From: an uncultured Spirochaetota bacterium
GTDB lineage: Bacteria; Spirochaetota; Spirochaetia; SZUA-6; Fen-1364
DNA: 64,000 nucleotides
NCBI GenBank assembly: GCA_963820525.1
Contig: CAWGAA010000001.1
Span: 1,984,001-2,048,000 of the forward strand
Direction: 5' to 3'
The notes under the pieces were generated by a model. The model saw only the letters and a program-made list of their open reading frames with translations. It ran no database searches and was not told the origin of the DNA. Every line of letters starts with the position of its first letter. Positions within the stretch are counted from its first letter, which is position 1. Positions 10,498-31,288 of this stretch are shown piece after piece. A program made the position numbers and the translations under genes.

Positions 10498-10657
10498 GGT
10501 ATCTGCGAAGGTACCAGAAGCTGCCCGCAAGCGGCAAGGCAGACAAATCCCCGCTTCCCCCATGCCGAAAAAAAATCTGTTTGCGCTCTGAAACTGTGAT
10601 ACATTGGAGATAAAAGAGCCCTTTTGGCCGCTGGCCGAGAGGCGGGAAGAAATCTCC

Positions 10658-11365
10658 ATGCGGTTGAAAAACTATAATGAAGACCTGGTGCTGGACACCG
10701 TCAAGATCGTTCTCAAGGACCGAGCGGACCTCAAGCCGAGCCGTTCGTTCATCCTCGACGTTGCGGCCTATACCCTGAACCGCATTCCGCCAAAGTACAT
10801 CACGAGCGAGCGGGGCTTCACCCGCGAGCTCATCCAGGCTTCGGTGGAAAAGGACGGGCAGGGGCTGATCGACGTGATCGAGCTCATCACCCTCATCAAC
10901 CGCGCCATCGACGTGGTTGTCGGGCGCCGCAAGGGGCCCGCCGGGACGCGGAAGAGAGTCCCGGCCCCCGTGAATGCGGTTCTTGCCGACGGGGAGATCA
11001 CCTACTACTACAACCTGCCGCACATCTTCGGCAGGGTGGTGGATTCTCGAGACGAAAGCCCCGTCATAGCCGCCGACGTGACCCTCTTTGTGAACAACCA
11101 GCTTTCCGTCCCGGCGGAGCCGGGATGGCAGAACCCCTACCGGACCAACGAACAGACCAAAGGCTACTTCAGCTTCTGGCCTCAGCCTGAAGCGGGGCCC
11201 CGGGACACTTTCCGCGTCGAGCTTTCCATCGGGTTCGAGCACGACGGGTACAGGCCCTTCACGTACAGGAAGAACCTGAAGGTGCCCGGCGAGTACTTCG
11301 TCCACGACTACATCCGCTCAGACAAGCTCCTGGACCTGGGCACGCTGACCCTCGACAAAACCTGA
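10658..11365 (+). CDS. ComFB-family protein with C-terminal beta-sandwich domain
   Basis: LKNYNEDLV...DVAAYTLNRIPPKYITS matches the ComFB core; the C-terminal part reads IFGRVVD...ADVTL...NPY.T...GYFSFWP. Confidence 0.78.
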   Translation: MRLKNYNEDLVLDTVKIVLKDRADLKPSRSFILDVAAYTLNRIPPKYITSERGFTRELIQASVEKDGQGLIDVIELITLINRAIDVVVGRRKGPAGTRKRVPAPVNAVLADGEITYYYNLPHIFGRVVDSRDESPVIAADVTLFVNNQLSVPAEPGWQNPYRTNEQTKGYFSFWPQPEAGPRDTFRVELSIGFEHDGYRPFTYRKNLKVPGEYFVHDYIRSDKLLDLGTLTLDKT

Positions 11366-11786: not shown

Positions 11787-12542
11787 TCAGGGCCGAATCC
11801 GGTATTGAACCAGCCCGAGATACTCGTGTACCGCCTGGAAGCTCTCCGCCAGCGTCTGGAAAGAGGGGAGGAAGCTTCGAAGGTCGTAGCGCGCCCTTCC
11901 CGTCTTGTAGTCGGTAGGCGCCGGTACGACGGAGATTCCCGCCTTGCTGAAGGCGAGCACGCTCCGGGGCATATGGTAAGCGGATGTCACCAGCGCCGCA
12001 TGGCTGACCCCCGCTGCATGGAGCAGGGGGGCAAGGTTTCCGGCGTTCTCCCACGTCGTTCGGCTCTTGTCCTCGATTCGAATCATTGCGGAGGGAAATC
12101 CGAGCTCGGCGGCGGTCCTTTGCGCCGCTTCAGCCTCTGATTCCACGTTCCGCGCCCAGACCCTGCCTCCGGAGACGAACAGCGGCGTATCGCCCCGCCG
12201 TGCCAGCATGATCCCATAGGCCAGCCGTTTCAGCGATTCCGGGAAGAGGCTCGCGTGGCCGCCGAGCTCGGCCGAGCGGTCAATGGTCCCCCCGCCGAGC
12301 ACGATGACGGCGTCGTAGCGGGCAGTACGCTCGAGGGCCGGATAGCGGTTTTCCAGGGGCAGGAGCAGCGCGTCATGGACCGGCTCGATGGAAGCGAGCA
12401 GGAGAACGAGCGCCGCCGCCCCCATCGCTGCACGGCCCGCCCTCTTTCGGCCGCGCGCGGCCAGGAGCGCTCCTACCGCAATGACGAGGATGAACAAGAG
12501 AGGCGAGAGAAAAAGCGTTGTGATGACGGCGGAGAGGATCAC
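11787..12542 (-). CDS. YdcF/DUF218 (ElyC/SanA-like) envelope protein
   Basis: Two TM helices, then VIVLGGG, VSGG, ESEA, EDKSRTTWENA, LVTSAYHMPRS, P.PTD and HEYLG. GTG start is uncertain. Confidence 0.88.
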   Translation of the reverse strand: MILSAVITTLFLSPLLFILVIAVGALLAARGRKRAGRAAMGAAALVLLLASIEPVHDALLLPLENRYPALERTARYDAVIVLGGGTIDRSAELGGHASLFPESLKRLAYGIMLARRGDTPLFVSGGRVWARNVESEAEAAQRTAAELGFPSAMIRIEDKSRTTWENAGNLAPLLHAAGVSHAALVTSAYHMPRSVLAFSKAGISVVPAPTDYKTGRARYDLRSFLPSFQTLAESFQAVHEYLGLVQYRIRP

Positions 12543-12608
12543 GGCGGGGAAGAGTATATCCCTTGCTCCAATGGGAGAAAAGGCCGATATTGGGAAAAGG
12601 AGGAGGCG

Positions 12609-13466
12609 GTGGTCGAGGAATATCTCGATAAGATCAAGGATCTCCCCGTGATGCCGGAGGTGGCGCAGAGGGTCGTGAACCTCACCGAAGGCAGGATGGA
12701 GATCTCCTTCAAGGAGCTGGAATCCATCATCAAGGAGGATCCGGGCCTGACAGCGAAGATCCTCAAGATCGCCAACTCGGCGCTCTACGCCCGGCAGAAG
12801 GAGATCAAGAGCCTCCAGATGGCCATTTCCCTTCTCGGCTTCAAGAACATCAAGAGCCTCGTCCTCCTCATCATGGCCTCGCGGCTCTTTCCGAAGATGA
12901 AGAACACCTCGTTCCACCGCACCTACTGGCGGCATTCCACGCTGAGCGCTTTCCTCTCCAAGAGCCTGTCCCTGCGGTGCAGCAGGAGCGATTTCGCGGA
13001 AGAGGCGTTCATCGCCGGCCTCCTCCACGAGATCGGCCAGGCGGCGATGCTCAGCGTCTCGGCAGAGGAGTACAGCAAAGCCCTGGAAGCCGCGGAGCTG
13101 AAAGCCATGAGCCTCGAGACAATCGAAGAGCAGATGTTCGCCACCAACCACAGGGAGGTGGGCGGCGCGCTCCTAAAAAAGTGGAATTTCCCGGATATCT
13201 ACGTCGACGTGGCGCGGGAGCATGAGACTCTCAACATCACGTCCCCCCACAAGCCCCTCATTATCATCGTCTCCACGGCATGCATCATCGCGGATGGGAT
13301 CGAGTCAGCCGAGCTCACCCGGGAGAAGCAGGAGCTTTTCACGCAGCTCCTCCCCTATACCTGCCTGCCTCCGGGAGACATCGCCTCGTACGTTCAAACC
13401 TACACGGCGGAGCTCACGCAGCTGCGGCTGTTCCACGAGTACCAGAACCTCCTCGAGATCTCGTGA
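12609..13466 (+). CDS. HDOD-domain signalling protein
   Basis: LPVMPEVA...I..DPGLTAKILK.ANSA.Y...I.SL..AI.LLG...W.HS...AGLLHEIG...H..VG..L..KW.FP. Confidence 0.9.
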   Translation: MVEEYLDKIKDLPVMPEVAQRVVNLTEGRMEISFKELESIIKEDPGLTAKILKIANSALYARQKEIKSLQMAISLLGFKNIKSLVLLIMASRLFPKMKNTSFHRTYWRHSTLSAFLSKSLSLRCSRSDFAEEAFIAGLLHEIGQAAMLSVSAEEYSKALEAAELKAMSLETIEEQMFATNHREVGGALLKKWNFPDIYVDVAREHETLNITSPHKPLIIIVSTACIIADGIESAELTREKQELFTQLLPYTCLPPGDIASYVQTYTAELTQLRLFHEYQNLLEIS

Positions 13467-13503: not shown

Positions 13504-16500
13504 TCACGGCGCCAGGATCTCGGGAAGCTTCATTGAATAGCCCAGCCGCACCACGAGCGACCAGTACGTGGCGGGGCCGGCAACCGTGGGAACGGCGATG
13601 TCGTAGACGGCATCCAGGGTGTATGCCGACGTCCCCTGGGTGAGGCTCGCCGTCGCCTCCCCCTCGAACTTCAGGAACGAGATGGGCGATGGGCTTGTGA
13701 GCTGCTGCTGATAGGTGCCCGCAAATCCGCGAAGGCTGGCGCCGAGCACCGCGCCGCCCCCGATTCCGATCCACGTCGAGCCCATGAGACTTCCTCCCGC
13801 GGTCAGCTCGGATACGGGAGAGTAGTAGAGGTAGGGCTCATTGCGGGCGCAATCCTGGTAGGTGACATTGGCGATGAGGGCGAGAAGCGAATACGGGCTT
13901 CCCCCCTTCACCAATGTCACCGTTATCTCTTCCGCCGCCGTGGCGATGGCGTTGTTGAAGCCGAAGCTTCCGTCAACCAGGTAATCCACCTTGCCGTACG
14001 TCCGAAGAGTCGTATCGCGAAGCAGGAACGCATCGATGAACGAGAGGGGAAGCGAAAGATTGAGCTCGGCAGATGCGTCATTGATCGGCGTGCGCAGGGG
14101 GTCAAAGGTCTCGGGATAGCGTCCCCACCTGACACTGGAGGTCAGGAACAGCACGTTCGGCACTCCCAGGCTGAGGTCGGCCTGCGCGTAGAGGCTTGCC
14201 GAGTAGGCCTCGAAGAGGTCTCCGGGATTCTGAGGCGCACCGAGGGTATCCGCCCGATAGAAGAGCCCGTTTCCCGTGAGATAGCCCCCCAGCCACGGGG
14301 TGAGCTTGAGGTTGAGGAAGTACAGGTCCATCGGCGCGCCGATCCCCACGTCCTGGACCGAGTACGCCGAGTGGTCGACGAGGCTGTTCGCCACCCTGTT
14401 GACCCGCCAGTCGTCGGCGCGGTATGCGACGGTAAGGCCCCAGACGCTGTCGAAGAGGCGGGTATAGGAGGCTTCCGCGTGAAGCTGGGACCGGGTCGTG
14501 TCCGCGAAATAGGATCCCGTCGATGCCAGGGTATCGGCGTGATCCCGCGAGACCTGGTTGAACAGGGCGGCCACGTTCTCGAAGTAGGGGTCGACGGCGT
14601 AGACGCCGCGGTAGGCATCAAGGGCGCTGTGCCAGTCCCTGCTCCACTGGTAGATCTTGCCCAGGCGGAATTGGGCGCTCACGTTCCCCGGGTCGATCGC
14701 CAGGACCCTGCGGAACTGCGCGATGGCGGGCGCCAGCTGCTCTTCTCCGACATAGTAGTCGCCGAGCTCGTTTCGAAGGCCGTAGGTATCCTCGTCGAGT
14801 GAGTAGAAGGCGCGCATGACCGCGCCGGAGTACATGCCGGAGAGAACGGCAAGCTCCTTCTGCAACGCGGTCCTGGTCTCGGATGCGACCTTCTCCAGAC
14901 CCGCAAGCTCCACCGCCAGCGCCTGTCCTTCGGCGGCGGGGTCAGCCGCGCCCTCTCCCCCTTCGGTGGGAGAGCTCGGGGCTGAAGCGGGAGCCGAGAG
15001 GTGTAGAGCGAGGCGGGCAAAGTCGGGGAAATAGGCAGGGACAGCGGCACCGGGAACCGCCGCCAGGCTCGCGATGATCGGCAGCGCCTCCTGCGCCCTG
15101 CCGCCCCACAGCAAGCATTGGGCCTTTGCATAGTCCAGGCCGATGCCAGCCGCGGATTCCCCCGACGCCGCTGCGAGCAGCGCCTGGGCGCCGGCCCACT
15201 GCCTGTCCGCGAGATAGATCTTGGCCAGGACGAGCCGCGCCAGAACATCCGCGGAGAGGCCGGCGCGAAGCTCCGCCGTCTCCCCCTGCCTGTCCCACGT
15301 CCACTTGTTGCTGCGGGTGAGATCCGCGAAGACCTGCCGATCCTTGTCGTCGCTCGCCTGGAGGGCCGCGATCCTGTCCTTGTGCGCCGCGGCGAGGTCC
15401 ACGACGAGCTGGAGGCCGCCGATCAGCGCGCGAGCCTCCTCGATGCGCTGATTGAGCGAAGCCGCTTCCCCCTCCATGCCGGCCTGATCCCCCGCCGCCA
15501 TGACCGTCTTGGAGCGGGAAAGCTGGGCTGTCAGCGCCGCCCTCGCCTTCTCGGCATCCGCCGGCAGGCGGCCGAGGAAGCTCACGGCGAGGGAGCTCTC
15601 ATCCATGGCCTGGAGAAGACCCGCCGAACGAACCTCCATGTCCTTGAGCGCGAGATGGGCATGAATGACCAGGATGCGCCGGTACTCCTCGATGGCCTCC
15701 TTCTTTTTTCCATTCCAGAAATAGGTCTGGGCGAGGAGCTGGCGCAAGGCGAGGTTGTCGGGGTGATCGGCGAGCTTGGCCCGATAATCCGCGATCACCC
15801 GGTCCTTCATCCCTTCCTGCGCCTTGAAGGAGTCGAGGTAGGCGGAAAGGGTGGGAGAGGGAAAGAAGGTATCCGAGATCTGCGCCTCCACCTTCTCTGA
15901 GTCCGCGGTCCGGCCAAGAAACAGGTACGCGTCGATGAGAAGCAGGTACGCTTCCAGGTCCTGGGGTGAGACGCGAATGGCGAGGGCGAAGTCCGCGGCC
16001 GCGCGGTCGGGATACCCGTTGACGCGATACACCCTTCCCAGCTGCTTGAGCAGGCCGCTGTCGGTGCCGGCGATGTTCTGCGCTTCCCGAAGCTCGCTCT
16101 CCGCCTCAGAGCCCCTGCCCGCCCACAGGTACGTGAGGCCGAGGTTCACGGTAAGGTCCAGGTCCCTGGGGAACGCGGCAAGCCCTTCCCTGAAAAAGGA
16201 CACCGAATCGTCGTAGCGGCCGGTCCAGGCGGCGACCTTGCCCGCCTCCATCCACAGGTCGTGCCGATTCGGATCTTTCGAGAGAAGCTCGCGATACTTG
16301 GCAAGGCCCTCCGTCACGTCTCCCTTCCAGATCCTGTTCTTCGCGGTCAGGAGGAGCACCTCGGGGTTGCCGGGCTGGATGGGCGCGGCGCGATTGAGGT
16401 ACTTCAGCGCATTGAGGTAGTCTCCCAGCATGGTGTAGATCTGCGAGATGTAGACATAGGGCTGGATGCTCCCCGGGTTGTCGCGGATGCGGATGAGGTA

Positions 16501-17211
16501 GTCGTCTATTGAGAGGAACGGCGCGTTGATGGATTTGTCGTCAAGGTCCTTCGGGAAAACCGCGGGCAGGGGGGGAGTGAGGACCCGCTTCCCGTTGTCC
16601 TTGCGGACGAGGAAGAAGCAGTCGAGGTAGAAGAAATAGCGGCCGTCGATGCGCCTCTTGTCCGAGATCCCGAAGCGCAGGCTGTGCGCCTTGGCGTCCA
16701 GGGTGAGATCTCCCACGAGGTTCCAGTAGTACGCGGGAGCATAGTTCCCGGCCACCGTCACCGTCTCGCGGTATACGGGGATAGGCCTGCCCGAATCCAG
16801 CGTGATCTGAAAGGGAGAGGAGTAGGAGGGATACAGATCCTCTCGCGGCCCTGGAGGCGTCCCGCCATACCACAGCTCGTACACCCCCGCGGAGGGAACG
16901 GTGAACGCATAATCGGCGTAGAACGTCCCCACCCCGGCAAGCCCCGCGGCGCTGTTCAGCTGCAGCGTGCGCGAGCCTGAGCAGGAGTAGCTGAGGACCG
17001 GCTCGCGGGAGAAATTGGTGGAAACAGCGTCTTCCCCTTCGACGAAAACGAGGGTATCGTTTTTCTGGGGAAACACGGGCTCCAGCCGGCCTTTGCCCGG
17101 CGCGGGCTGGGCGGAGGGCTCGGCGGAAGAGGCCTGGGCGAAGAGCTTTCCGCCCGCCAGGGCCGCGATTGCGGAGGCGAAGAGAAGAACAGCTGTCAGT
17201 TTCCTGCACAT
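13504..17211 (-). CDS. large exported protein: CBM-like domain, TPR repeats and putative C-terminal beta-barrel (PelB/PgaA-analogous polysaccharide export protein)
   Basis: Signal peptide. Galactose-binding-fold pattern (VEGEDA...VPSAGVYELW...LTLDAKAHSLRF...YLDCFFL). Many TPR-like helices (A...Y...L..DP.N). Aromatic-rich alternating C-terminal ~330 aa. Divergent from the pel operon. Confidence 0.65.
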   Translation of the reverse strand: MCRKLTAVLLFASAIAALAGGKLFAQASSAEPSAQPAPGKGRLEPVFPQKNDTLVFVEGEDAVSTNFSREPVLSYSCSGSRTLQLNSAAGLAGVGTFYADYAFTVPSAGVYELWYGGTPPGPREDLYPSYSSPFQITLDSGRPIPVYRETVTVAGNYAPAYYWNLVGDLTLDAKAHSLRFGISDKRRIDGRYFFYLDCFFLVRKDNGKRVLTPPLPAVFPKDLDDKSINAPFLSIDDYLIRIRDNPGSIQPYVYISQIYTMLGDYLNALKYLNRAAPIQPGNPEVLLLTAKNRIWKGDVTEGLAKYRELLSKDPNRHDLWMEAGKVAAWTGRYDDSVSFFREGLAAFPRDLDLTVNLGLTYLWAGRGSEAESELREAQNIAGTDSGLLKQLGRVYRVNGYPDRAAADFALAIRVSPQDLEAYLLLIDAYLFLGRTADSEKVEAQISDTFFPSPTLSAYLDSFKAQEGMKDRVIADYRAKLADHPDNLALRQLLAQTYFWNGKKKEAIEEYRRILVIHAHLALKDMEVRSAGLLQAMDESSLAVSFLGRLPADAEKARAALTAQLSRSKTVMAAGDQAGMEGEAASLNQRIEEARALIGGLQLVVDLAAAHKDRIAALQASDDKDRQVFADLTRSNKWTWDRQGETAELRAGLSADVLARLVLAKIYLADRQWAGAQALLAAASGESAAGIGLDYAKAQCLLWGGRAQEALPIIASLAAVPGAAVPAYFPDFARLALHLSAPASAPSSPTEGGEGAADPAAEGQALAVELAGLEKVASETRTALQKELAVLSGMYSGAVMRAFYSLDEDTYGLRNELGDYYVGEEQLAPAIAQFRRVLAIDPGNVSAQFRLGKIYQWSRDWHSALDAYRGVYAVDPYFENVAALFNQVSRDHADTLASTGSYFADTTRSQLHAEASYTRLFDSVWGLTVAYRADDWRVNRVANSLVDHSAYSVQDVGIGAPMDLYFLNLKLTPWLGGYLTGNGLFYRADTLGAPQNPGDLFEAYSASLYAQADLSLGVPNVLFLTSSVRWGRYPETFDPLRTPINDASAELNLSLPLSFIDAFLLRDTTLRTYGKVDYLVDGSFGFNNAIATAAEEITVTLVKGGSPYSLLALIANVTYQDCARNEPYLYYSPVSELTAGGSLMGSTWIGIGGGAVLGASLRGFAGTYQQQLTSPSPISFLKFEGEATASLTQGTSAYTLDAVYDIAVPTVAGPATYWSLVVRLGYSMKLPEILAP

Positions 17212-17230
17212 GACGAGATCTCCGTTGGTA

Positions 17231-17239
17231 TGCTACACT
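17231..17239 (+). promoter_or_regulatory. extended -10 promoter of the pel operon (leaderless)
   Basis: TGcTACACT lies 6 nt before GTG 17246, and there is no Shine-Dalgarno sequence. Confidence 0.45.
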
Positions 17240-17245
17240 GATTCC

Positions 17246-18673
17246 GTGAAGAAGGATAGCACCACACTGACTCTCGCGGAGATCGCCGCTTTTTCAGCCG
17301 TCATTGGAGCGGCCAACGCCTTCTTCCCCTCCAACCCGGGGTTTTTGCAGGGTGTCTTCAACCCCTACCTCGTCGTCGCACTGTTCTGCGCCGTCGTCTA
17401 CGGCAAATACCAGGGATTCGCAAGCCTCCTGTTCTCTGCCGTCATCGTCTGTTTGCCCTTCCCGCTGGCCGTCGGGTACCTCGCCCTGGGCAGGCCCCCC
17501 GATTTCATCGCCTCCTGGGCATCGCTGTGGGTCCGCGCCCCGGTGCCCCTGGCAATCACCCTCATCGAGGTATATTTCCTGGGACTCATCCGCGATTCCC
17601 TGGTCGCGCGGGAAATGAAGAGCAAGAAGAGAATCAGCACCATCGCGCGGGAGAAGGGCCTGGTGATGCGCCAGATGAGGGTGCTCCAGACCGCCAACAT
17701 CGAGCTGGAGGAGAGGATTTCGCGCCAGGAGGACAGCATCACCTCCCTCTATGAGCAGATCGAGGTGCTTCGCTCCCTGAACCTCTCCAAGGCGCTGCAG
17801 GCGATGCTCGGCATGGTGCGCCGGTTCGTCGGCGCGACCCGATGCTCGATCTGGGAGCATAAGCCGGAGTCGAAGAGGCTGGAGCTTGCGGCCGGCATGG
17901 GCAGGGAGGAGGATGCGGAGACCTCGCTTGCAGACGAGAGCACGATCGAAGGCTGGGTGGTGCGCAACAACATGATGTTCTCCGTCAAGATGCTCCTCGA
18001 GCACGACAGCCTGGCAAAGCTCGACACGGGGCGGAGCATCATGACCCTCCCCATCTCGGCCGGGAGGCGGATCTGGGGCGCGCTCACCATAGAGGAGATG
18101 CCCTTCGCCAAGTACAACCTCTACACGGAACGGCTCCTCCTTCTCATCATGGCGCTCGCGGCGCCCGCCCTGGAGAGGGCGATCGAGTACGAGTCCATGA
18201 TCAGGCAGGAGGAGATCGACGCCGTGACGGGCCTCCCCACATTCTCCCAGTTCTATTCCCTGTTCGAGAAGGAAATCACCCGGTCCGCCCAGGAGAAGGG
18301 GACCTTCGCCGTCGTGATATTCGAGCTGTTGAACTACCCCACCCTCGTGGAGCGCTTCGGAAGGGAGGAAGTCCTGCGCCTCCTCGGGGAAATAGCCGTC
18401 ATGGCGCAGGCCCTCGCCGGGCCGCACGCGCGGTTCTTCCATTATAAAGGGGAGGGACAGCTGGCCGTTCTCTGCCCCAACCTGGACAGAGACGGCGCTT
18501 CCCTGTTCTGCCTGAACGTCCTGGGCAAGGTCAACTCCGACGTCTGGCAGGCGCGCGGCGAGAGGGCATACCTCGAGTTGATCCTGGGGTTCTCCGCGCA
18601 GGCCGGGACCGTGAAGTCTCCCGACGAGCTGTTGAAGGCGGCGGAGAACCTTCTGGACATGCAGAAGGTATAG
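17246..18673 (+). CDS. pelD: PelD-like protein (TM helices, coiled coil, GAF, degenerate GGDEF)
   Basis: About 4 TM helices with NPY...YG...G, a coiled coil, a GAF domain and a GGDEF-fold remnant (DAVTGLP...FG...KGEGQL). First gene before pelE/F/G. Confidence 0.72.
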   Translation: MKKDSTTLTLAEIAAFSAVIGAANAFFPSNPGFLQGVFNPYLVVALFCAVVYGKYQGFASLLFSAVIVCLPFPLAVGYLALGRPPDFIASWASLWVRAPVPLAITLIEVYFLGLIRDSLVAREMKSKKRISTIAREKGLVMRQMRVLQTANIELEERISRQEDSITSLYEQIEVLRSLNLSKALQAMLGMVRRFVGATRCSIWEHKPESKRLELAAGMGREEDAETSLADESTIEGWVVRNNMMFSVKMLLEHDSLAKLDTGRSIMTLPISAGRRIWGALTIEEMPFAKYNLYTERLLLLIMALAAPALERAIEYESMIRQEEIDAVTGLPTFSQFYSLFEKEITRSAQEKGTFAVVIFELLNYPTLVERFGREEVLRLLGEIAVMAQALAGPHARFFHYKGEGQLAVLCPNLDRDGASLFCLNVLGKVNSDVWQARGERAYLELILGFSAQAGTVKSPDELLKAAENLLDMQKV

Positions 18674-18676
18674 GCG

Positions 18677-19417
18677 ATGCCGGGATTCGATTTCTTTCGC
18701 AGGAGAACCAGGGGCTACGTGCCCAAGACCCCCGGCGCCGCCCTGCGGGCCGTGGGCTCGGGGGCCGCGTCCCCCGAGCACTTCATCTGGGAGAGCTGCT
18801 CATCCAAGCCCTTGGACGAGGAGCCGTTCGATCTCGATGCCATCGAGCGGACACTCTCCCGCCCTGACCTCGGCGTAGAGACCGCCAGGCTGCTCAAGGA
18901 GATCTTCGAGAAGATGATAGGCAGCAAGGAGCCCGAGACTGCCCTCTTCGGCGCCGAGGGGATCAACACGCTGGAGGGACGATGCGTCTCCAGCATCGAG
19001 GCGCTGAAAAGGAAGCTGTCGCTCCAGGAGAACGCGGCGCTCTGGCGCGCTCTGGCGCTCGCGTACTTCGCGCTGGCGGAGCTCCACGTGAAGGCCCGGC
19101 TGATCAGGGCCTTCTACCTGAAGGAAGCGCACGCGGCGCTTACGAAGTCCATCGCCATGCAGGGGGCCCTCGATAACGAATCCCTCGCCCTGGCGGTCGA
19201 CATCCTCGTCGGGCTCGGCCTTCACGATCAGGCCGCCCGAATGCTGGAGGGCGCCTCAGGGAAGGCGGATCCGTTCGTGACACTCCTTTCGGCGCGGGTG
19301 GCCTTCCATCGCGGGGAGTACGGGAAGGTGATCGGCCTGTGCCGCGCCCTGGCGCCGCACAGCAAAGAGCTTCGCGACGCGGACAGGCGCGTCATCGATT
19401 TCTGGACGGGGCGCTGA
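18677..19417 (+). CDS. pelE: PelE-like TPR protein (no N-terminal TM helices)
   Basis: ETALFGAEGINTLE motif, helical TPR-like repeats, C-terminal FW, and position between pelD and pelF. Confidence 0.6.
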   Translation: MPGFDFFRRRTRGYVPKTPGAALRAVGSGAASPEHFIWESCSSKPLDEEPFDLDAIERTLSRPDLGVETARLLKEIFEKMIGSKEPETALFGAEGINTLEGRCVSSIEALKRKLSLQENAALWRALALAYFALAELHVKARLIRAFYLKEAHAALTKSIAMQGALDNESLALAVDILVGLGLHDQAARMLEGASGKADPFVTLLSARVAFHRGEYGKVIGLCRALAPHSKELRDADRRVIDFWTGR

Positions 19418-19418
19418 C

Positions 19419-20840
19419 ATGAAGCGCATCACCGTCTGCCTCATCCTGGAGGGCTCCTACCCCTACATCACCGGCGGGGTCTCGGCGTGGGTGCAGGAGC
19501 TGATCGGCGCTCTCCCCCAGATCGATTTCACCCTCTATACCTTCTCTCCCAAGAGCGGCCAGGAGATCCGCTACGCTTTCCCTCCCAACGTGATCGGACA
19601 CAGAGATATCGTGATCGGACAGCGGAGGAGATCCCGCGGGAGGGCGCGGGGAAAGAGGGAGCTTCTGGCTGAAATCCAGGCCCTGCACTCCGCCCTCGCC
19701 TCCGGCTCCGCCCCCGCCTTGAACGAGATCCTCGCCCGCGCGCCCGAAGGCTATTTCCTCTATAACGAGGCCGTCGCGAGCGAGGAGGGCTGGGAGATGA
19801 TCGTGACCGCCAACCAGGAGCACAATCCCATCTACCCCTTCTCCGATTACTTCTGGTCATGGAAGTCGGCCCACGACCTGGTTTTCACCGTGCTGGGCGA
19901 TTCCCCTCCCCCCGCAGACATCTACCACGCCGTCTCGACGGGGTACGCGGGCCTCGCCGCCATGGCGGCCAAGGGCCGGACGGGAAGGCCCTTCCTCCTC
20001 ACCGAGCATGGGCTGTACCACAAGGAGCGCGAGATGGAGATAAAGCGGGCGGCATTCGTTCGCGGCTACCAGCGCGATCTGTGGATCGGGATGTTCAACG
20101 GGCTCTCCCGGATGTGCTACCGCTCGGCGGACCTCGTCATTTCACTCTTCGAGTACAACCGCCGGCGTCAGATGGACCTGGGGGCCGAAGCGGACAAGGC
20201 CATCGTGGTGCCCAACGGCATCGACATCGCGCGCTTCAGCTCCGTGATACGAAAAAAGAGGGGGGGCTTCCACGTCGGGTTCGTGGGGAGGGTGGTGCCG
20301 ATCAAGGACGTGAAGACTTTCATCCTCATGGCCAAGATCGTTTCAGAGGCGCTTCCCGAGGCGCGCTTCTGGTGCATCGGCCCCACCGACGAGGACCCCG
20401 CCTACTACGAGGACTGCCGGGCCCTCGTGGAGACCCTCCGCTTGGGCGGGCAATTCAGCTTCACGGGGAAGCAGGACGTGCGCTCGTACTACGAGTTTCT
20501 CGACGTGCTGGTGCTCTCCAGCATCCGCGAGGCGCAGCCCCTGGTCATCCTGGAGGCGTTCACGGCGGGGCTTCCCGTGGTCTCCACCACGGTGGGAAAC
20601 GTCGCCGAGCTCCTGGACTACGACGAGCGGTTCCTCGCCCCCTCGAAGGACGCGGAGAAGCTGGCGCGGGCGGTGCGCTTCGTGCACGGCCACCCCGACG
20701 AGATGGAAAGGATCGCGGCGGCGAACAAGGAGAAGGCGGGGCGCTTCTACGACAAGGCCGACGTCTTTCGACGCTACGGGGAGATCTACGGGAAGCTCGT
20801 GGAAAGCGACAGGGCATGGCGGGAATCGGCTTCGAGCTGA
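19419..20840 (+). CDS. pelF: GT4 glycosyltransferase PelF
   Basis: CLILEGSYPYITGGVSAWV, HAVSTGYAG, LTEHG.Y..ER, GRVVPIKDVKTF, EDP.Y..C and S.REAQPLVILEA motifs. Confidence 0.93.
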   Translation: MKRITVCLILEGSYPYITGGVSAWVQELIGALPQIDFTLYTFSPKSGQEIRYAFPPNVIGHRDIVIGQRRRSRGRARGKRELLAEIQALHSALASGSAPALNEILARAPEGYFLYNEAVASEEGWEMIVTANQEHNPIYPFSDYFWSWKSAHDLVFTVLGDSPPPADIYHAVSTGYAGLAAMAAKGRTGRPFLLTEHGLYHKEREMEIKRAAFVRGYQRDLWIGMFNGLSRMCYRSADLVISLFEYNRRRQMDLGAEADKAIVVPNGIDIARFSSVIRKKRGGFHVGFVGRVVPIKDVKTFILMAKIVSEALPEARFWCIGPTDEDPAYYEDCRALVETLRLGGQFSFTGKQDVRSYYEFLDVLVLSSIREAQPLVILEAFTAGLPVVSTTVGNVAELLDYDERFLAPSKDAEKLARAVRFVHGHPDEMERIAAANKEKAGRFYDKADVFRRYGEIYGKLVESDRAWRESASS

Positions 20841-22309
20841 AGAAGGCCCTCCAGCGCGGAGGGATCGGGCGGTTCGTCACGGTGAGCCTGGCCGGCACCG
20901 CGATCGTCGCGGGGCCGTGGCTCCTCTCCGTGCTGGGGATATTCCTCATCCAGCGCTTCGCCTCCGCCCTTCTGGCGCAGGCAGCCGCCCTGTTCATGGC
21001 CGTCATCATCTACTCCTACGCTTTCTCCCTCATCGCCTCCAGCGGCTTCGCCTACGTGTTCACCCGCTGGGTCTCGGACCTCATCTACGAGGAGAAGAGG
21101 CGTGAAGCGGGGGGAGCGCTCCTGGCCTATCTGATCCTCGTGGTTGCCGGCGCCGCGGCCCTCGGCCTGGCGGGGGCCCTGCCGCTTTCCCTGGCGGGGG
21201 TCGTGGCGCACCCCCGGCTCTTTGCCGCTTCCGCGGTCCTGCTTTTCGTCGCCATCAATGCGAGCTGGGTCCTCATCTCCTTCGTCTCGCTTTTGCGGCG
21301 GTACCTGGGGATCCTCCTGGTGTACATCGGCGGCTCCCTCGGCTCCTTCATCGGCGTCGTGCTCCTGGGCCGCGCCTTCGCGGCCGCCGGCGCCCTGCTG
21401 GGCTACGCCCTCGGCCAGTGCCTCACGGCCGCTGCGCTCTACGCAATGACCCTGGGACGCTTTCGCCCCATGAGCCTCCCCTTTTCCGGCATCGCAGCGT
21501 ACCTCCGCCGGTACCGCTTCCTGTTCTTCTCCGGCATGCTCTATGCCTGGGCAACCTGGGTGGACAAGGTCGTTTTCTGGCTTGCCTTCGGCACCAGGGT
21601 CCCCGGGGGGTGGCTCTCCATATTCGACCCCTATGACGCGCCTGTATTCTTCGCCGTGCTCACCCTGATCCCCGCTCTCATCTACTTCACCATAGAGGCG
21701 GAGACGACCTTCTACCCGCGCCTCCGCGACTTCCTCAAAAACCTCACCACCGGGCCGTACAAGAAGATCCAGGAGAAGAAGTACGCGATGATCCGCTCGA
21801 TGAACAGCGGCCTGAGGGAGCAGGCTCTCCTCCAGGGGATCTCCACCGCCGTCGGGCTTCTGCTGGCGCCCATCATCGCCGCACGGGTGCTCGGCGGGCA
21901 GGCATCCGTGCCGATCCTCCGCCTCACCCTGGGCGCCGTCTTCTTCCACTCCCTCTTTCTCACACTCATGATCTTTCTCTTCTACCTGGAGCTGTACGCG
22001 CGGGCCTTTGCGGCGACCCTCGCCTTCTTCGCGGTGAATCTGCTGGCCAGCCTGCTTCTTGCGCTCACGGGGGCAAGCGGACTCGCCGGCGCGAGCTACC
22101 TGGCGGGGGGCATCGCCGGCTGTATCGTCGCGGGCATCCTGTTGTCGCGCTCCGCGTCACGGATAGACCGGACGCTCTTCTCCCGGGCCGCGAGGAGCGG
22201 TGGGGTTGTCAAGGTGGAGACGGTCAGCGAGAGACGGGGCCGGGATACGGCGCGGCGACGTCCGGAACGGAAGGCCCAAGGGGCACGGGGTCGGGGAACC
22301 TCCCCATGA
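20816..22309 (+). CDS. pelG: Pel exopolysaccharide transporter PelG
   Basis: Signature N-terminus MAGIGFELKK, AGPWL, TRW.SD.IY, W.DK..FW, YD..VF.A.L...P and ET.FY motifs, about 12 TM helices. Confidence 0.93.
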   Translation: MAGIGFELKKALQRGGIGRFVTVSLAGTAIVAGPWLLSVLGIFLIQRFASALLAQAAALFMAVIIYSYAFSLIASSGFAYVFTRWVSDLIYEEKRREAGGALLAYLILVVAGAAALGLAGALPLSLAGVVAHPRLFAASAVLLFVAINASWVLISFVSLLRRYLGILLVYIGGSLGSFIGVVLLGRAFAAAGALLGYALGQCLTAAALYAMTLGRFRPMSLPFSGIAAYLRRYRFLFFSGMLYAWATWVDKVVFWLAFGTRVPGGWLSIFDPYDAPVFFAVLTLIPALIYFTIEAETTFYPRLRDFLKNLTTGPYKKIQEKKYAMIRSMNSGLREQALLQGISTAVGLLLAPIIAARVLGGQASVPILRLTLGAVFFHSLFLTLMIFLFYLELYARAFAATLAFFAVNLLASLLLALTGASGLAGASYLAGGIAGCIVAGILLSRSASRIDRTLFSRAARSGGVVKVETVSERRGRDTARRRPERKAQGARGRGTSP

Positions 22310-23060
22310 GGTACCGATACCGCTCGCTCATCTGGTGGCTTCGCTGGAATGTGCTCACGTTGTAGCGCAGGGGATTGGGAAGAATCGTGACCAGCCGGCG
22401 CTGCTCGTCGAGGGAAAGACCCGACGGCTTGGACTTGTAGTAGTAGGAAGAGGCCGCACCGATCCCGTACACGCCCCGGCCCCACTCGATATAGTTGAGA
22501 TACAGCTCCAGGAGCCTCTCCTTTTTCAAGAGCAGGTCCATCTCCACGGCGATGAGGGCTTCGACGTACTTGCGAAGATATGTCTTTCTGGGCGTGAGGA
22601 AGAGGGTGCGGGCGAGCTGCTGCGGGATGGTGCTCCCGCCGTACAGGGTGTAGCCGATCGACCTGTTCACGTTATAGGCGTCCCTGATCGCCGCGAAGTC
22701 GATCCCCGCGTGCGAGTAGAACCTCATATCCTCCACCCTGATGAACATCTCCCGGGCGGAACGCGGCACCTGGCGCAAAGGAACGAAAGCCAGAGGCTTC
22801 GCCTTCTGGTGCGATATGACGCTGCGATAGATCATGAGGGAAGTGACGGGGGGATTGCGGTGGGCAAGCACAAGGCAGGCGGCGAAAACGGCCAGAAAGA
22901 GCGCGACATGACCCGCCACGAGCGCGCCGAGGAGGAACCTGCCGAGCCGGGAGACGGCCAGCAGGAGAAAATCGCCGAGCCGGGAGGCGGAGCCTGTCCC
23001 GAAGCGGCGCAGGACGGCGGCGGCATGGTGGCGGATACTGTCCGGGATGCTTGAGATCAT
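22224..23060 (-). CDS. mtgA: monofunctional peptidoglycan transglycosylase (GT51)
   Basis: EDMRFY.H.G.D, GGSTI.QQLA..LF, RK..E, K.RLLELYLN.IEWG.GVYG..AAS motifs. Start uncertain. Confidence 0.88.
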   Translation of the reverse strand: MISSIPDSIRHHAAAVLRRFGTGSASRLGDFLLLAVSRLGRFLLGALVAGHVALFLAVFAACLVLAHRNPPVTSLMIYRSVISHQKAKPLAFVPLRQVPRSAREMFIRVEDMRFYSHAGIDFAAIRDAYNVNRSIGYTLYGGSTIPQQLARTLFLTPRKTYLRKYVEALIAVEMDLLLKKERLLELYLNYIEWGRGVYGIGAASSYYYKSKPSGLSLDEQRRLVTILPNPLRYNVSTFQRSHQMSERYRYLMGRFPDPVPLGPSVPDVAAPYPGPVSR

Positions 23061-24284: not shown

Positions 24285-25475
24285 ATGAAAAGCAACATTT
24301 CGATTCTTCCGGTCGTCATGCGCTCAACTCCGAGGTACGTCATGCCGCTCGCCAAAGCTTTCCTGAGAAAGCTCATGGCAGAAAAGTTCGATTATTACCT
24401 TGGAACGGGACGCAGCAGCAGGCTCGCCCTCGTGACCTTCAAAATCACACCGATCTGCAACCTCTCCTGCAAGATGTGCGGCCAGCGCGGGAAAACAGGC
24501 GTGCTCAAGGGCCAGCGCGCTCTGGAGGAGGCGAAAAAGATCGTCCCCATCGAGCGTTACAGGGCTCTGGTCGAGGAGCTGGCGCCCATGAACCCGATCC
24601 TGTATATCTGGGGCGGAGAGCCCTTCCTGTACCCGGACTTCATGGACCTGGCTGCCTACATGGCCAAGAAGTGCCGTGCCTTCACCGTGAATACAAACGG
24701 CACCTACCTGGCGGACAACGCCGAGCGGATCGTGCGCGATCGGTGGGGAGGCGTCTACGTCTCCCTCGACGGGACGGAGGAGGTCAATGACCCAATCCGC
24801 GGGAGAGGCACCTACAGGCGGGTGGTCGAGGGATTCAAGGCGCTGAACAGGGAAAAGGAGAAGCAGGGAAGCAAGCTGCCCTACCTGGGGCTGGTCACGT
24901 GCGTGAGCAACATGAACTACATGCACCTGGAAGAGCTCATGGAGGAGGCGCGCCAGTTCAAGCTTTCCTGGCAGGTGATCAACCTCGGCACCTATTCCAA
25001 CACCGCCGTTGTGGTCAAGCAGCGCGCGTTCATGCAGGAGACCTTCGGAATCCGCGCCAACTGCCTCGAGGGGTTCACCAACGGCTACAACGAGGGAATC
25101 GACGCGAAGCTCTTCGAGGGGATCCTTACCCGGATCCAGAAGCTCGACTACGGCTACCCCATCCTCTGCGAGCCCGCGCTCAACGCGGACAAGATCGAAA
25201 AGTACTACAGCGATTTCGACGCCGCCCCCCGCAACCGCTGCATCTGCCCCTGGGTGCATGCCGACATCGACTACAACGGGGACGTGCATTTCTGCGTGGA
25301 TTTTCCCGAGTATGTGCTGGGCAACATCAAGGAGGAGAGCTTCCTCACCATCTTCAACAACGACAAGGCCGCCCGCTTCAGGAAAACGCTCCGCGCGGAT
25401 CCCGACGGAATCTTTCCCGGCTGCAGCCGCTGCTATCAGCTCATGCTCCTGGGGCGCAGGAACAGGAGCTTTTAA
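24285..25475 (+). CDS. radical SAM protein with SPASM/twitch domain
   Basis: CNLSCKMC, GGEP, NTNG, SLDG, then C..PW....I..NG.V..C.D and C..C. Confidence 0.9.
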   Translation: MKSNISILPVVMRSTPRYVMPLAKAFLRKLMAEKFDYYLGTGRSSRLALVTFKITPICNLSCKMCGQRGKTGVLKGQRALEEAKKIVPIERYRALVEELAPMNPILYIWGGEPFLYPDFMDLAAYMAKKCRAFTVNTNGTYLADNAERIVRDRWGGVYVSLDGTEEVNDPIRGRGTYRRVVEGFKALNREKEKQGSKLPYLGLVTCVSNMNYMHLEELMEEARQFKLSWQVINLGTYSNTAVVVKQRAFMQETFGIRANCLEGFTNGYNEGIDAKLFEGILTRIQKLDYGYPILCEPALNADKIEKYYSDFDAAPRNRCICPWVHADIDYNGDVHFCVDFPEYVLGNIKEESFLTIFNNDKAARFRKTLRADPDGIFPGCSRCYQLMLLGRRNRSF

Positions 25476-25511
25476 GGGCCGCGCATTATTCGGCCGTCCG
25501 GCGGAGCGTTT

Positions 25512-26720
25512 TCAGGAAATCTTTTTCAGCTCGGACAACCGCTCATCTATCGCCCTCTCGTACACGGCGAGGAGCATCTCCGTGGTCTTTTCCAGCGTCC
25601 ACCGCCGCGAAACGGCTCGGGCCCGCTCCCCGGCGGCCTTCCTTGCATGCTCGTCACGAAGGTAGTAAAGCACCCTGTCCGTAAAGGCCGCGATGTCCTC
25701 TTCGACGAGCGAGCCCCCCTCTCCATCGGTCAACACTTCCTCGGTGGCGGTGGCCCGCAGGGCCACCACGGGGGTGCCGCAGGTCATCGCTTCCACCAGG
25801 ACGAGGCCCTGGGTCTCGGTCTTCGAGGAGAAGACAAAGAGGTCTGATGCCCCATAGATGTAGGCGAGCTTCTTCCTGTCGAGGTAGCCGGGGAACAGGA
25901 CATTGCCGCCAAGCCCCTGCGCCGCGGCTTTCCGTTCGAGGCCGGCCCGATACGGGCCGTCCCCGGCCATGAGGAGCAGCGCCTTGGGGACGGTGCGGAT
26001 AACGCGGCCCAGGCACTCCAGAAGGAAATCGATGTTCTTCTCGTGGGCTATGCGCCCCACGTACAGGAGAAGCCGTCTGCCGGCCAGTTGCGGCATGACT
26101 CTCCTGAAATAGGCGGCCTGCTCGGCGCGCTCGGCGGGGCTCATGGTGAACTCTTCGGGATCCACGCCGTTGGGGATCACCTCGATCGGCGTCTCCACGC
26201 CATAGGTGAGGAGATGGCGCTTGAGAAACTGCGAAGGAACCGTGAGGCGGTCCACCAGCCTGTAATCGCTTCGCGACCACGTTCTGGCGATGAGCTTCGC
26301 GGCCGCCGGCAGGAGGAAGGGGAAGTAGGCCTGGATGTAGTGCTCCCAATACGTATGGCATGTCATGACATGGGGCACCCCGGACCGCCTGCAATAGCTC
26401 TTCCCCCCGAAGCCGATGGTGAACTCCGAGTGGGCGTGAACGACATCCGGCTTCAAATCTTCCAGCAGGCGGGTGATCCTCCACCGGGCCGCGGGATATC
26501 CCAATCGATCCTCCGGGGAGAAGGGCAGGCTGAACGCGGGGAAGCGGATGATCCTTTCGTCGTCCGGCGGGGAGGCGTCGCCCTCGGGTCGCGGATACAG
26601 CGGCGCGAGGACGATGACCTCATGGCCCAGTTTCGTGAGGGCTCGCCGGAAGCCCTCGACAGCAACGGTCACCCCGTTGATCCGGGGCCAGTATGTGTCG
26701 GTGGTCATCACGATTCTCAT
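25512..26720 (-). CDS. GT4 glycosyltransferase, 1,2-diacylglycerol glycosyltransferase (glycolipid synthase)-like
   Basis: MRI.MTTDTY.P.INGV, H.EF.IG, HTYWE.Y..Y, GR.A.EKN and F.SKTETQGLVL.EA motifs, typical of the MGS/UGDG-like subfamily. Confidence 0.85.
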   Translation of the reverse strand: MRIVMTTDTYWPRINGVTVAVEGFRRALTKLGHEVIVLAPLYPRPEGDASPPDDERIIRFPAFSLPFSPEDRLGYPAARWRITRLLEDLKPDVVHAHSEFTIGFGGKSYCRRSGVPHVMTCHTYWEHYIQAYFPFLLPAAAKLIARTWSRSDYRLVDRLTVPSQFLKRHLLTYGVETPIEVIPNGVDPEEFTMSPAERAEQAAYFRRVMPQLAGRRLLLYVGRIAHEKNIDFLLECLGRVIRTVPKALLLMAGDGPYRAGLERKAAAQGLGGNVLFPGYLDRKKLAYIYGASDLFVFSSKTETQGLVLVEAMTCGTPVVALRATATEEVLTDGEGGSLVEEDIAAFTDRVLYYLRDEHARKAAGERARAVSRRWTLEKTTEMLLAVYERAIDERLSELKKIS

Positions 26721-26825
26721 GCGAACCCCAGCTCCTCCCGTCGACGATACCCCTTTTCCCGACGGAACGGCAACGCCTCTCCCCCTACCCCGAAACCCTT
26801 CAATTTGATATATAATGCACCGATT

Positions 26826-29800: not shown

Positions 29801-31288
29801 CGTCCCGGCGCACACCGAGGTGGACCAGACGGGAAAGGTGCTCTTCGTCGGCTCCGACGGGACGCGCCTCTCCGTCAGGGACCCCCGGGTGCGGGTGATC
29901 GTCCCCTCCATGGGAGACTTGTTCTCCTGCGGAATGGCGGCGGTGCTCCGCGGCCTGGGCTGGCATGCCGAAGCCCTGCCGGTCTGCGACCGGGAGGCCC
30001 TGGACCTGGGCAGGTCCGTGACCACGAGCAAGGAATGCCTTCCCATCATCAACATCCTGGGAGAGATCCTCAAGTACCTGAAGCACAGGAAGGACCCTCG
30101 GAGAGACTCATCATAGGAATGGTTGATGCGGGGGGATGCTGCAGGGTGGGCCAGTACGAGATCCTCATCCGGGCGCTGATCGAGAAGAAAAGGCTCACCG
30201 ACGTCGCCCTGCTCCTCGTTTCCAACGACGACGGCTATGCGGGCCTCGGAATCAGGTTCCGCCTCCAGGCCGTCAAGGCCCTCTACCTCACGGACGTCAT
30301 GGATGACGTTCGCTCGGTGATAAAGGCGCTCGCGGTGGACAGAAAAGCCGGCATGGAGATTTACGAGGAGGAGGTGAAGAAGCTCCTGGGCACCCTCGAC
30401 GGCTCCACCGGCCGCTCCACGTACGGGCAGCTTCGCTCCAGCGTGAAGCTGCTTTCCCGGATCCGGCTTCGGCTGCCCCTGTCCAAGGCGAAGTACATCG
30501 GCGTGGTGGGAGAGATCTTCGTGCGCCGGGACCACTTCTGCCTCATGGGGATTCCCGAGAGGCTGGCCGAGCAGGGATTCGTGATGCTCGACGCTCCCGT
30601 TTCCGAATGGGTCCGCTACACGGATTTCCTCCGGGACATCGGGATGTACACGGCCAAGCACAGCTTCATCGGCTCCATCGAAGCCTTCCTCTCGGACTGG
30701 GTCCAGGCCTACCACGAGCGAAAAGTGAAGAGGCTCCTGGCAAAAACCGGGCTCTACGAGTACGAGCTCATCGACATCAAGGGATACCTGGCCCATTCCA
30801 CGCACTACTTCCCCCTGGAGCTCACCGGGGAGCCGGGGCTTTCCTCGGGCTCGGCCCTGTATCACTTCGTGGACAAGTACTGCGGCACCATCAGCGTCGG
30901 GCCCTTCGGCTGCATGAACTCGCGCATGACGGAGGCCGTTGCCACCGTGGAAATGACCACGGCGGGAAAAGAGAAGGCGGCGGCGAATGCGGGCCGGCGC
31001 GTGGACCTCGGCGAGATACGAACCAACGTCGATATGCTTCCGTTCCTCAACGTCGAGCTCGACGGCAATGTGTTCACCCAGATCGAGGAAGCGCGCTTCG
31101 AGACCTTCCTCCTCCAGGCACGGAGGCTCGGCGAGGAGATGGAGAGGCATCGAAGCGGAAATGGCTCCAACGGCAATAACGGATCGGGGAACAACGGAAA
31201 CGGCGCCGCGCGCTCCGGCAACGGAAATCACGGCCGCCTCGAAAAGGCTCAGCCGTCGTCCCTCCGGGGCAGCGGTCCGAAGAATTGA
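26826..31288 (+). pseudogene. fused 2-hydroxyacyl-CoA dehydratase activase-like protein (two BadF/BcrAD ATPase domains, DUF2229-like, reductase-like; PlsA/Ger architecture), split by a frameshift near 30095
   Basis: KCASGTGEF, RCSVFCKSD, GIDVGSTTTK, TGSGR, EIGGQDAK, MNEACSAGTGSF, CAAF, GGACNKY, GRPY, C.LDS, LE.DSHTADAG..TR.EAF and KECLP lie in frame 26826..30116. GCCRVGQY, GEIFVR, GPFGCM and P.L..E.DG lie in the frame ending at 31288. The break may be a sequencing error. Confidence 0.8.

Follow-up and report, generated by a model that had tools for sequence, protein, structure and literature searches.

A conserved Pel exopolysaccharide variant in Spirochaetota with a predicted carbohydrate-binding-module-like, TPR-barrel exporter and no detected PelA or PelC

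We analyzed a 64,000-nucleotide stretch of DNA (the window) from an uncultured Spirochaetota bacterium (assembly GCA_963820525.1, contig CAWGAA010000001.1, positions 1,984,001 to 2,048,000) and found in it a Pel exopolysaccharide locus of unusual composition. Genes for PelD, a PelE-like protein, PelF and PelG stand head-to-head with a gene for a 1235-residue protein that, judged by its structural model, is very probably the exporter. The locus is a real, conserved Pel variant and is apparently unpublished. We favor, with modest confidence, reading it as a deacetylase-less subtype of a Spirochaetota-specific Pel system, in which poly-N-acetylgalactosamine (poly-GalNAc) would be exported by the 1235-residue protein without a PelC ring and would leave the cell unmodified and neutral.

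The pelDEFG locus and its predicted exporter

The locus comprises the following features, given by position in the window.

12609–13466, plus strand: stand-alone HDOD gene, 285 aa (PF08668, E 3e-54), convergent on the exporter gene; candidate regulator
13504–17211, minus strand: exporter gene, ATG start, 1235 aa; predicted outer-membrane exporter
13525–14535, minus strand: predicted 16-strand beta-barrel of the exporter, residues ~893–1229
14542–16509, minus strand: periplasmic helical part of the exporter, residues ~235–890, comprising a TPR array, long helical hairpins and final TPRs (Pfam TPR matches and DSSP of the model)
16594–17061, minus strand: CBM6/CBM35-like beta-sandwich of the exporter, residues ~51–206
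17212–17245, no strand: 34-bp intergenic gap between the divergent starts
17246–18673, plus strand: pelD, GTG start, 475 aa, with a membrane region, a GAF domain and a degenerate GGDEF domain without RxxD
18677–19417, plus strand: pelE-like gene, 246 aa, named mainly by position
19419–20840, plus strand: pelF, GT4 glycosyltransferase, 473 aa, motifs intact
20816–22309, plus strand: pelG, ATG start, inner-membrane transporter, 497 aa

Gene content identifies pelDEFG as a genuine Pel core. PelF scores 349 bits against NF038011 (cut-off 100), also matches PF11997 and shares its motifs with three reference PelF proteins; PelG scores 292 bits against PF16933 (cut-off 29). PelD gives GAF_3 and GGDEF matches behind an N-terminal hydrophobic region read from the sequence, and no match to PF16963 (PelD_GGDEF). 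A family search with the 246-aa product encoded upstream of pelFG returned no match, and its similarity to Pseudoalteromonas PelE is weak (25% identity, E 3e-5), yet the PelE-like gene is kept in related loci. The open reading frame positions bear out a preliminary description of this DNA, which had placed a coupled pelD-E-F-G operon 34 bp from a divergent 1235-aa gene; pelF and pelG overlap by 25 bp. No sigma-70 consensus site lies inside the 34-bp gap, and a promoter and terminator scan did no better than chance; the promoters of the divergent pair would need to overlap coding sequences. Seven DNA sequencing runs contain at least half of the sequence words of the locus, all of them wetland or sediment metagenomes, and among the runs listed with locus words none is an RNA run.

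The predicted structure of the 1235-aa protein places it in a known export class. We modeled residues 41–1235 with AlphaFold2 from 116 aligned sequences (mean predicted local distance difference test score, pLDDT, 91.1; predicted template-modeling score, pTM, 0.82), having read the signal peptide from the sequence by eye. From N to C terminus the model contains a beta-sandwich, a tetratricopeptide repeat (TPR) array, helices of 40–65 residues, more TPRs and 16 long strands. All four parts named in the preliminary description are present in the model, what had been called a coiled-coil middle being the set of 40–65-residue helices, and the barrel-like C-terminus appearing as a predicted 16-strand barrel of the PgaA/PelB/BcsC class. 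Pfam recognizes only the TPRs, with no match in the barrel region. Compared with 48,161 representative chains, the barrel best matches PgaA (4y25; Z 27.7, root-mean-square deviation 2.3, 280 residues aligned), followed by PelB (9h80, Z 24.1) and BcsC (6tzk, Z 23.2), with the next barrel at Z 18.1. A comparison in the Atlas returned the same order (PgaA_barrel 0.94). A Foldseek search with the full model is dominated by TPR proteins; BcsC takes ranks 13 and 15 and PgaA rank 50 (target TM 0.81). A sequence search of the PDB found TPR proteins only.

By predicted fold and by its genetic coupling to the synthase, the exporter would be a member of the PgaA/PelB/BcsC class of TPR-barrel secretins. 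It is predicted to work like PelB; orthology to PelB is not supported by sequence. Neither PF24604 nor PF13429 (TPR_15) gives a cut-off match, PF24604 being scored by both reference PelB proteins, and a profile comparison of the exporter with PelB (hhalign) gave a probability of 3.7%.

The N-terminal domain, which the preliminary description had called carbohydrate-binding-like, does take a CBM6/35 fold in the model, CBM denoting a carbohydrate-binding module. Folded alone it reaches pLDDT 91, and the predicted fold is clearly a CBM6/35-like jelly roll: the best matches are 3zm8 (Z 12.5), 7ehg (Z 12.1) and 4qb1 (Z 11.4), with a Foldseek E of 5e-7. Cry toxin domain III and GH115 domains come close behind CBM35 and CBM6 in the same structure search, no Pfam CBM matches at E ≤ 0.01, and the CBM assignments from the Atlas are leads only (0.88–0.89). 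Across 116 rows E58, E60, Y157, W163, R186, D189 and D197 are invariant, and we take the acidic residues among them to sit where CBM6 and CBM35 modules bind calcium. The domain may be read as a candidate sugar-binding module.

The pairing of this exporter with pel is conserved. Among 60 relatives pelG occurs in 30 and the exporter in 24, all 24 with pelG; loci fetched from five of the six pelG genomes without the exporter are other pel arrangements. The CBM domain was found in 58 of 301 genomes of the class, and all 48 new carriers have pelG, as do all 73 Spirochaetia exporter carriers. Where fetched loci contain both the exporter and pelD, 51 of 59 are head-to-head and 8 co-oriented, with a median gap of ~46 bp over 54 divergent loci (a rough estimate). 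Linkage of the TPR gene to pel is thus conserved in other genomes, and the head-to-head arrangement has not arisen by chance. A probable spirochaete origin, as given in the preliminary description, agrees with the names of the exporter's relatives: it has 176 homologues at E ≤ 1e-20, and the named ones are Spirochaetia, including Salinispira pacifica and Spirochaeta isovalerica. One partial match, on a 2.7-kb contig, carries an Acidobacteria label (label unchecked).

The exporter extends beyond this class in a longer form. A phylum sample of 301 genomes contains 20 with pelF, and 17 of 17 from other classes carry a longer exporter homologue. In one set of loci from another class (L152–L158) it measures ~1670 aa, with ~430 extra C-terminal residues that presumably form Ig-type repeats and an OmpA-like domain. 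In two other-class loci a stand-alone Pel deacetylase gene (PelA-DA, of the DUF2194 family) comes after the exporter homologue together with a GH114 gene; a third locus has PelA-DA in that place. The L152–L158 loci also have a 350–410-aa gene of unknown kind between the exporter and pelD, and in several of these genomes pelF-pelG is present a second time, next to a weaker HDOD-like gene of its own.

Undetected PelA and PelC, and two further gene families

PelC is indispensable to diderm Pel systems, and in the two tested systems cyclic di-GMP (c-di-GMP) binds PelD directly. The absence of pelA and pelC noted in the preliminary description holds at the locus and, at the sensitivity tested, throughout the window genome (G000), which is 96.7% complete in 4 contigs. 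Profiles for GH114, DUF2194, Agd3_CE and Spherulin4 have no match in it. Searching it by tblastn with PelA, PelB, PelC and GH114 sequences, a Cetobacterium DUF2194 protein and two spirochaete PelA-DA proteins gave a best E of 0.11, and a 26-sequence PelA-DA profile found nothing at E ≤ 10 in its six frames. The reference Pel operons were those of Pseudoalteromonas (NZ_CP045419.1) and Paraburkholderia (NZ_CP024936.1). The best PelC match, by tblastn or a two-sequence profile, is an ABC-type binding protein (E 0.04); none of the fetched pel loci contains PelC, and no canonical pelABC was found elsewhere in the genome. Seven LpoB-family matches in G000 are unlinked and have no homologue in pel loci. 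It is highly likely that PelA, PelA-DA and GH114 are truly absent from this genome.

Lack of PelA does not belong to this exporter as such, nor does the exporter replace PelA: among its 73 carriers, DUF2194 is encoded by 28 and missing from 45. In four related families every one of the 12 carriers has a DUF2194 score above cut-off. None does among the 13 carriers from the window's own family plus one more family, and the additional 48 carriers contribute 16. Two of the 28 (L132 and L133) belong to a different kind of locus; in their genomes (G275, G285) the pel locus is ~30 kb away from another locus, which has a Cetobacterium-like DUF2194 gene but no pelFG. The deacetylase gene often sits directly behind the exporter and is unlinked in some relatives. 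Full-length copies of the PelA-DA type have the HGxNH motif in 23 of 23 cases and the DD motif in 22 of 23, resembling the catalytic motifs given for Bacillus cereus PelA-DA (PMC13254593).

Because DUF2194 is missing from whole families and from three single-contig genomes, assembly gaps do not explain its absence. On a tree of the exporter the deacetylase trait changes four or five times; the tree, like the lumen counts below, used 63 full-length rows (>1150 aa), truncated and split copies being dropped. Loss is the simpler reading, since another class also carries PelA-DA behind the same exporter, and the deacetylase-less state is probably a subtype derived by loss, on a tree that is unrooted.

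Clustering of neighboring genes revealed a lipoprotein, which 35 of the 59 loci encode and whose gene frequently follows pelG directly. The G000 copy lies 0.9 Mb from the pel locus (C1:1083053–1085050) and has a lipobox, an unnamed ~370-aa domain and a LamG domain. A 33-row profile detects the family in 46 of 301 genomes, 43 of which are exporter carriers. Two of the remaining three genomes have pelF, and none of the three has the exporter at E ≤ 1e-40. In one 96%-complete genome pelF adjoins the lipoprotein gene (G276:C24:13629–15742), and the exporter was not found there. The lipoprotein accompanies 41 of the 45 carriers without DUF2194 versus 7 of the 28 with it; ~30 of these positives had themselves contributed profile rows. 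Judged by its gene associations, it likely belongs to the system.

The lipoprotein family is otherwise uncharacterized. It has 191 matches among 1.84 billion representative sequences (clusters at 50% identity), LamG is the only domain recognized in 43 scanned homologues, and of ten homologues looked up the three with names are spirochaete hypothetical proteins. Beyond LamG it has no Pfam match, and it has no PDB sequence match. Over 117 rows E138, Y140 and Y270 are invariant and D161, E272 and R324 near-invariant, with no conserved histidine column. As a candidate PelC homologue it aligned only through its signal peptide and lipobox, and as a candidate PelA homologue it gave no match. Group-specific exporter residues that could mark docking of the lipoprotein or the deacetylase occur at scattered positions only. 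A second lipoprotein family was considered and dropped, having no match in G000: the genomes concerned (G025, G039; loci L059, L062) have two exporter paralogues, one of them followed by an unnamed lipoprotein of 420–460 aa. Three loci of the window's family (L039, L043, L056) have a gene for a 225-aa small outer-membrane barrel (weak PF13505) between pelG and the lipoprotein gene.

The HDOD gene, which lies just beyond the coordinates of the preliminary description, is the second recurrent partner. Its GTG start at 12609 is preceded by GGAGG, and the ends of the HDOD and exporter genes are 37 bp apart. Of the 59 loci that have exporter and pelD, 46 include the HDOD gene; it stays beside pelD where the exporter has moved elsewhere, and seven loci of the other class have it next to pelG. 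A profile built from 51 sequences of pel loci (E ≤ 1e-60) finds orthologues in 55 of the 58 exporter carriers; among the 243 remaining genomes it finds them in 7, and in one of these the exporter is present but truncated. From this distribution the HDOD protein is a conserved member of the system and a candidate regulator.

PelD itself points to altered regulation. Ahead of the degenerate active-site loop, RxxD is missing from all 65 PelD rows of the alignment, in which the C-terminal helix is strongly conserved. In B. cereus PelD, RxxD is described as the mark of c-di-GMP binding (PMC7112168). A PelD without RxxD suggests regulation that differs from canonical Pel, and c-di-GMP might still bind by another site. 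SadB of Pseudomonas aeruginosa likewise has an HDOD domain. In the literature it has been called an adaptor protein (PMC12075610).

A proposed route for the polymer, and its alternatives

In the route we propose, PelDEFG would build poly-alpha-1,4-GalNAc, the UDP-GalNAc substrate and the linkage following from PelF orthology. The CBM-like tip, N-terminal of the TPRs and hence periplasmic, would face the inner membrane and catch the chain as it leaves PelG. The TPRs would guide the chain to the PgaA/PelB/BcsC-type barrel for release without a PelC ring, and the polymer would emerge unmodified and neutral. The HDOD protein would switch the synthase by protein contact, replacing direct c-di-GMP binding, a step we rate as evenly balanced. 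For the unlinked lipoprotein the favored role would be to bind the neutral polymer and tether it to the envelope.

Published work fits such export. Among the related secretins, BcsC and PgaA function with no PelC-like lipoprotein (PMC12141448). PelC has been portrayed as a funnel that acts electrostatically on cationic Pel, and the lumen of PelB as anionic (PMC12022489, PMC12141448), so a neutral chain would need neither. Streptococcus intermedius Pel has been suggested to be mostly GalNAc and neutral (PMC12345266). Estimated by strand parity, the charge of the barrel lumen is −2.8 ± 2.7 in deacetylase-less exporters (n=38) versus −7.2 ± 4.9 in the others (n=16; Mann–Whitney p 0.002), and −4 in the window exporter. 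A neutral polymer is a plausible product.

Several observations weigh against this route. A deacetylase-free pathway would run counter to every tested Pel system: deacetylation is reported as required for any polymer in two of them, no Pel being detected from P. aeruginosa or B. cereus without an active deacetylase (PMC13254593), and S. intermedius still needs pelA-DA (PMC12345266). The lumen estimate comes from strand parity, not coordinates, and fails a kinship test that retained 3 independent pairs, two paralogues having been additionally dropped. The anti-correlation of deacetylase and lipoprotein likewise comes down to 3 independent pairs (sign test p ~1); the two coexist in 7 of the 28 deacetylase carriers, and 4 of the 45 deacetylase-less carriers have neither. 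The HDOD and lipoprotein profiles were built from many genomes that were later counted with them. Since one reference PelC gives a weak score with the LpoB family, which has seven matches in G000, a distant helper with the PelC fold might be encoded there. The same genome has two other CE4-like genes, one among housekeeping genes and one in a separate surface-polysaccharide cluster; neither resembles PelA-DA.

That deacetylase mutants of P. aeruginosa and B. cereus make no detectable Pel keeps alive the strongest rival, in which the lipoprotein is a new modifying enzyme (a metal-free de-N-acylase, hydrolase or lyase) doing PelA's job on a polymer that is still processed. The lipoprotein's enrichment in carriers without DUF2194 and its frequent place right after pelG fit this idea, as do the resemblance of E138, Y140 and Y270 with D161, E272 and R324 to a catalytic or sugar site, the fused LamG, typical of glycan-active enzymes, and the need for modification described for tested systems (PMC13254593). 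Without a conserved histidine, however, the protein would not be a metal esterase of the CE4, CE18, CE21 or CE26 type. It has no match to PelA, to Pfam outside LamG or to PDB sequences, its anti-correlation with the deacetylase loses significance after correction for kinship, and it coexists with the deacetylase in several genomes. We regard this rival as unlikely.

A different product would also remove the need for a deacetylase, which would have been lost as the product changed to another or a short glycan: one built from another hexosamine or joined by another linkage, or a sheath glycan that stays bound to the cell. PelF is only 33–37% identical to plasmid-borne PelF of other phyla, the exporter, regulator and accessory lipoprotein are all lineage-specific, and the donor of a GT4 enzyme is not readable from sequence. 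PelF nevertheless keeps the motifs of the three reference PelF proteins, in relatives, PelF proteins of this clade occur together with PelA-DA and GH114, and a GalE-like epimerase stands beside two loci (L100, L110), which together make a changed product rather improbable.

Slightly less probable again is ordinary deacetylation by an enzyme that was missed, either a PelA-DA in the unassembled part of the genome or an unlinked CE4 such as G000:C2:209665–211986. At 96.7% completeness a gene could be missing from the assembly, CE4-like genes are present, and PelA-DA is unlinked in some relatives, but the deacetylase is absent alike from whole families and single-contig genomes, and the two CE4-like genes, neither of which resembles PelA-DA, occupy unrelated settings. 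Inactivity and decay of the locus after deacetylase loss is very improbable: in tested species, loss of the deacetylase by mutation abolishes Pel (PMC13254593), and three related loci (L038, L056, L057) are frameshifted, but those frameshifts are confined to low-completeness assemblies (G001 60%, G017 69%, G024 72%), and dozens of deacetylase-less genomes from many families have full-length genes with conserved motifs.

Tentatively, the deacetylase-less route could be part of a third, phylum-wide Pel design: a lectin-tipped secretin, an HDOD protein switching a c-di-GMP-blind PelD and, in most Spirochaetia, a deacetylase swapped for a lipoprotein of new glycan-binding or glycan-modifying fold. 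This broader design is possible but doubtful. If true, it would be the first Pel pathway to run without deacetylation, or with new chemistry for deacetylation, and would give a stand-alone spirochaete HDOD protein its first assigned target.

Neighboring genes and relation to known systems

Several genes flank the locus. A ComFB-domain protein (10604–11365, plus strand; PF10719) lies 1.2 kb from the HDOD gene. ComFB is reported as a c-di-GMP receptor family (PMC12448109). It was rejected as a member of the system: a link to pel appears in just two genomes, both from one genus, and mtgA is likewise linked mainly there. A DUF218 open reading frame (11787–13151, minus strand) has a listed start that overlaps the HDOD gene on the opposite strand; the true gene is probably shorter and ends before ~12560, and the overlap is an antisense shadow of HDOD that recurs across many loci. 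On the other side, a monofunctional peptidoglycan transglycosylase gene (22224–23060, minus strand; TIGR02070 just below cut-off) converges on pelG with an 86-bp overlap, and the window PelG is ~35 aa longer than its relatives. Further on, 24285–31288 holds a radical SAM/SPASM gene, a GT4 glycosyltransferase gene and a long BadF-type CoA-activase reading frame (26043–30116), which overlaps a 1053-aa reading frame (28127–31288) on the same strand in another frame; the overlap suggests a frameshift near 30100.

Other pel-like arrangements occur among the relatives. Two loci (L042, L049; genomes G040, G035) combine pelF-pelG with genes for a HEAT-repeat protein, an MBOAT O-acyltransferase, an AlgX-type SGNH protein and a GHL-type hydrolase, with no DUF2194 in the genome; their product is possibly an O-acetylated Pel-like polymer. 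A block of TPR, LamG and HDOD-paralogue genes beside the exporter in one genus (L063–L065) lies 650 kb away in G000 and was placed outside the system.

We found no description of a spirochaete pel system in the literature, in a search that most subscription papers fell outside. The string 'Spiroch' is absent from the main text of PMC7112194 and PMC7112168, and four spirochaete names are absent from 12 of the 18 supplements of PMC7112194, including a table of ~940 predicted operons; the other six supplements could bear on this.

The locus is a natural, conserved variant without deacetylase, recognizable PelC or RxxD, and the deacetylase is retained in close relatives that share the exporter. 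Such a pair offers a comparison for why deacetylation gates synthesis and what PelC is for. Free-living sediment spirochaetes gain a candidate matrix polymer, secretins gain an architecture with a built-in CBM-like domain, and two uncharacterized families, the pel-linked HDOD clade and the lipoprotein, acquire a testable context.

Set against the Pseudomonas-type pelABCDEFG system (PelBC structure 9h80), the spirochaete locus shares the order and families of pelD-E-F-G and a predicted exporter of TPRs and a 16-strand barrel (Z 24.1 to PelB). It differs in that no PelA (GH166 and CE21) or PelC was found and PelD lacks RxxD. Unlike PelB, the exporter has a CBM-like tip and a long helical stalk, is divergently transcribed, and is partnered by the HDOD protein and the lipoprotein. 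The Gram-positive pelDE-A(DA)-FG systems of B. cereus and S. intermedius likewise have no PelC, and their PelA-DA is described as CBM114 joined to CE26 (PMC13254593). Relatives of the window system use the same stand-alone DUF2194 deacetylase, whereas the window genome has no PelA-DA. Streptococcal PelD is also reported as c-di-GMP-blind (PMC7112168, PMC12345266), but streptococci lost the GGDEF domain and the fold is kept here without its site. In contrast to the Gram-positive systems, this one belongs to a diderm with a predicted outer-membrane exporter.

The exporter also resembles PgaA (4y25), its best structural match, and BcsC (6tzk, 9b8h), which likewise combine TPRs and a 16-strand barrel in one polypeptide with no lipoprotein ring. 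Identity is ~10%, with scores below the PgaA family cut-offs, and the exporter here goes with a GT4 Pel synthase and carries an N-terminal CBM6/35-like domain. That domain shares its predicted jelly roll with CBM6 and CBM35 modules (3zm8, 7ehg, 4qb1, 2cdo) over 120–135 residues at Z 11–12.5 and 10–23% identity, in a fold that also occurs in non-CBM domains. Here it is fused to a secretin rather than to a hydrolase.

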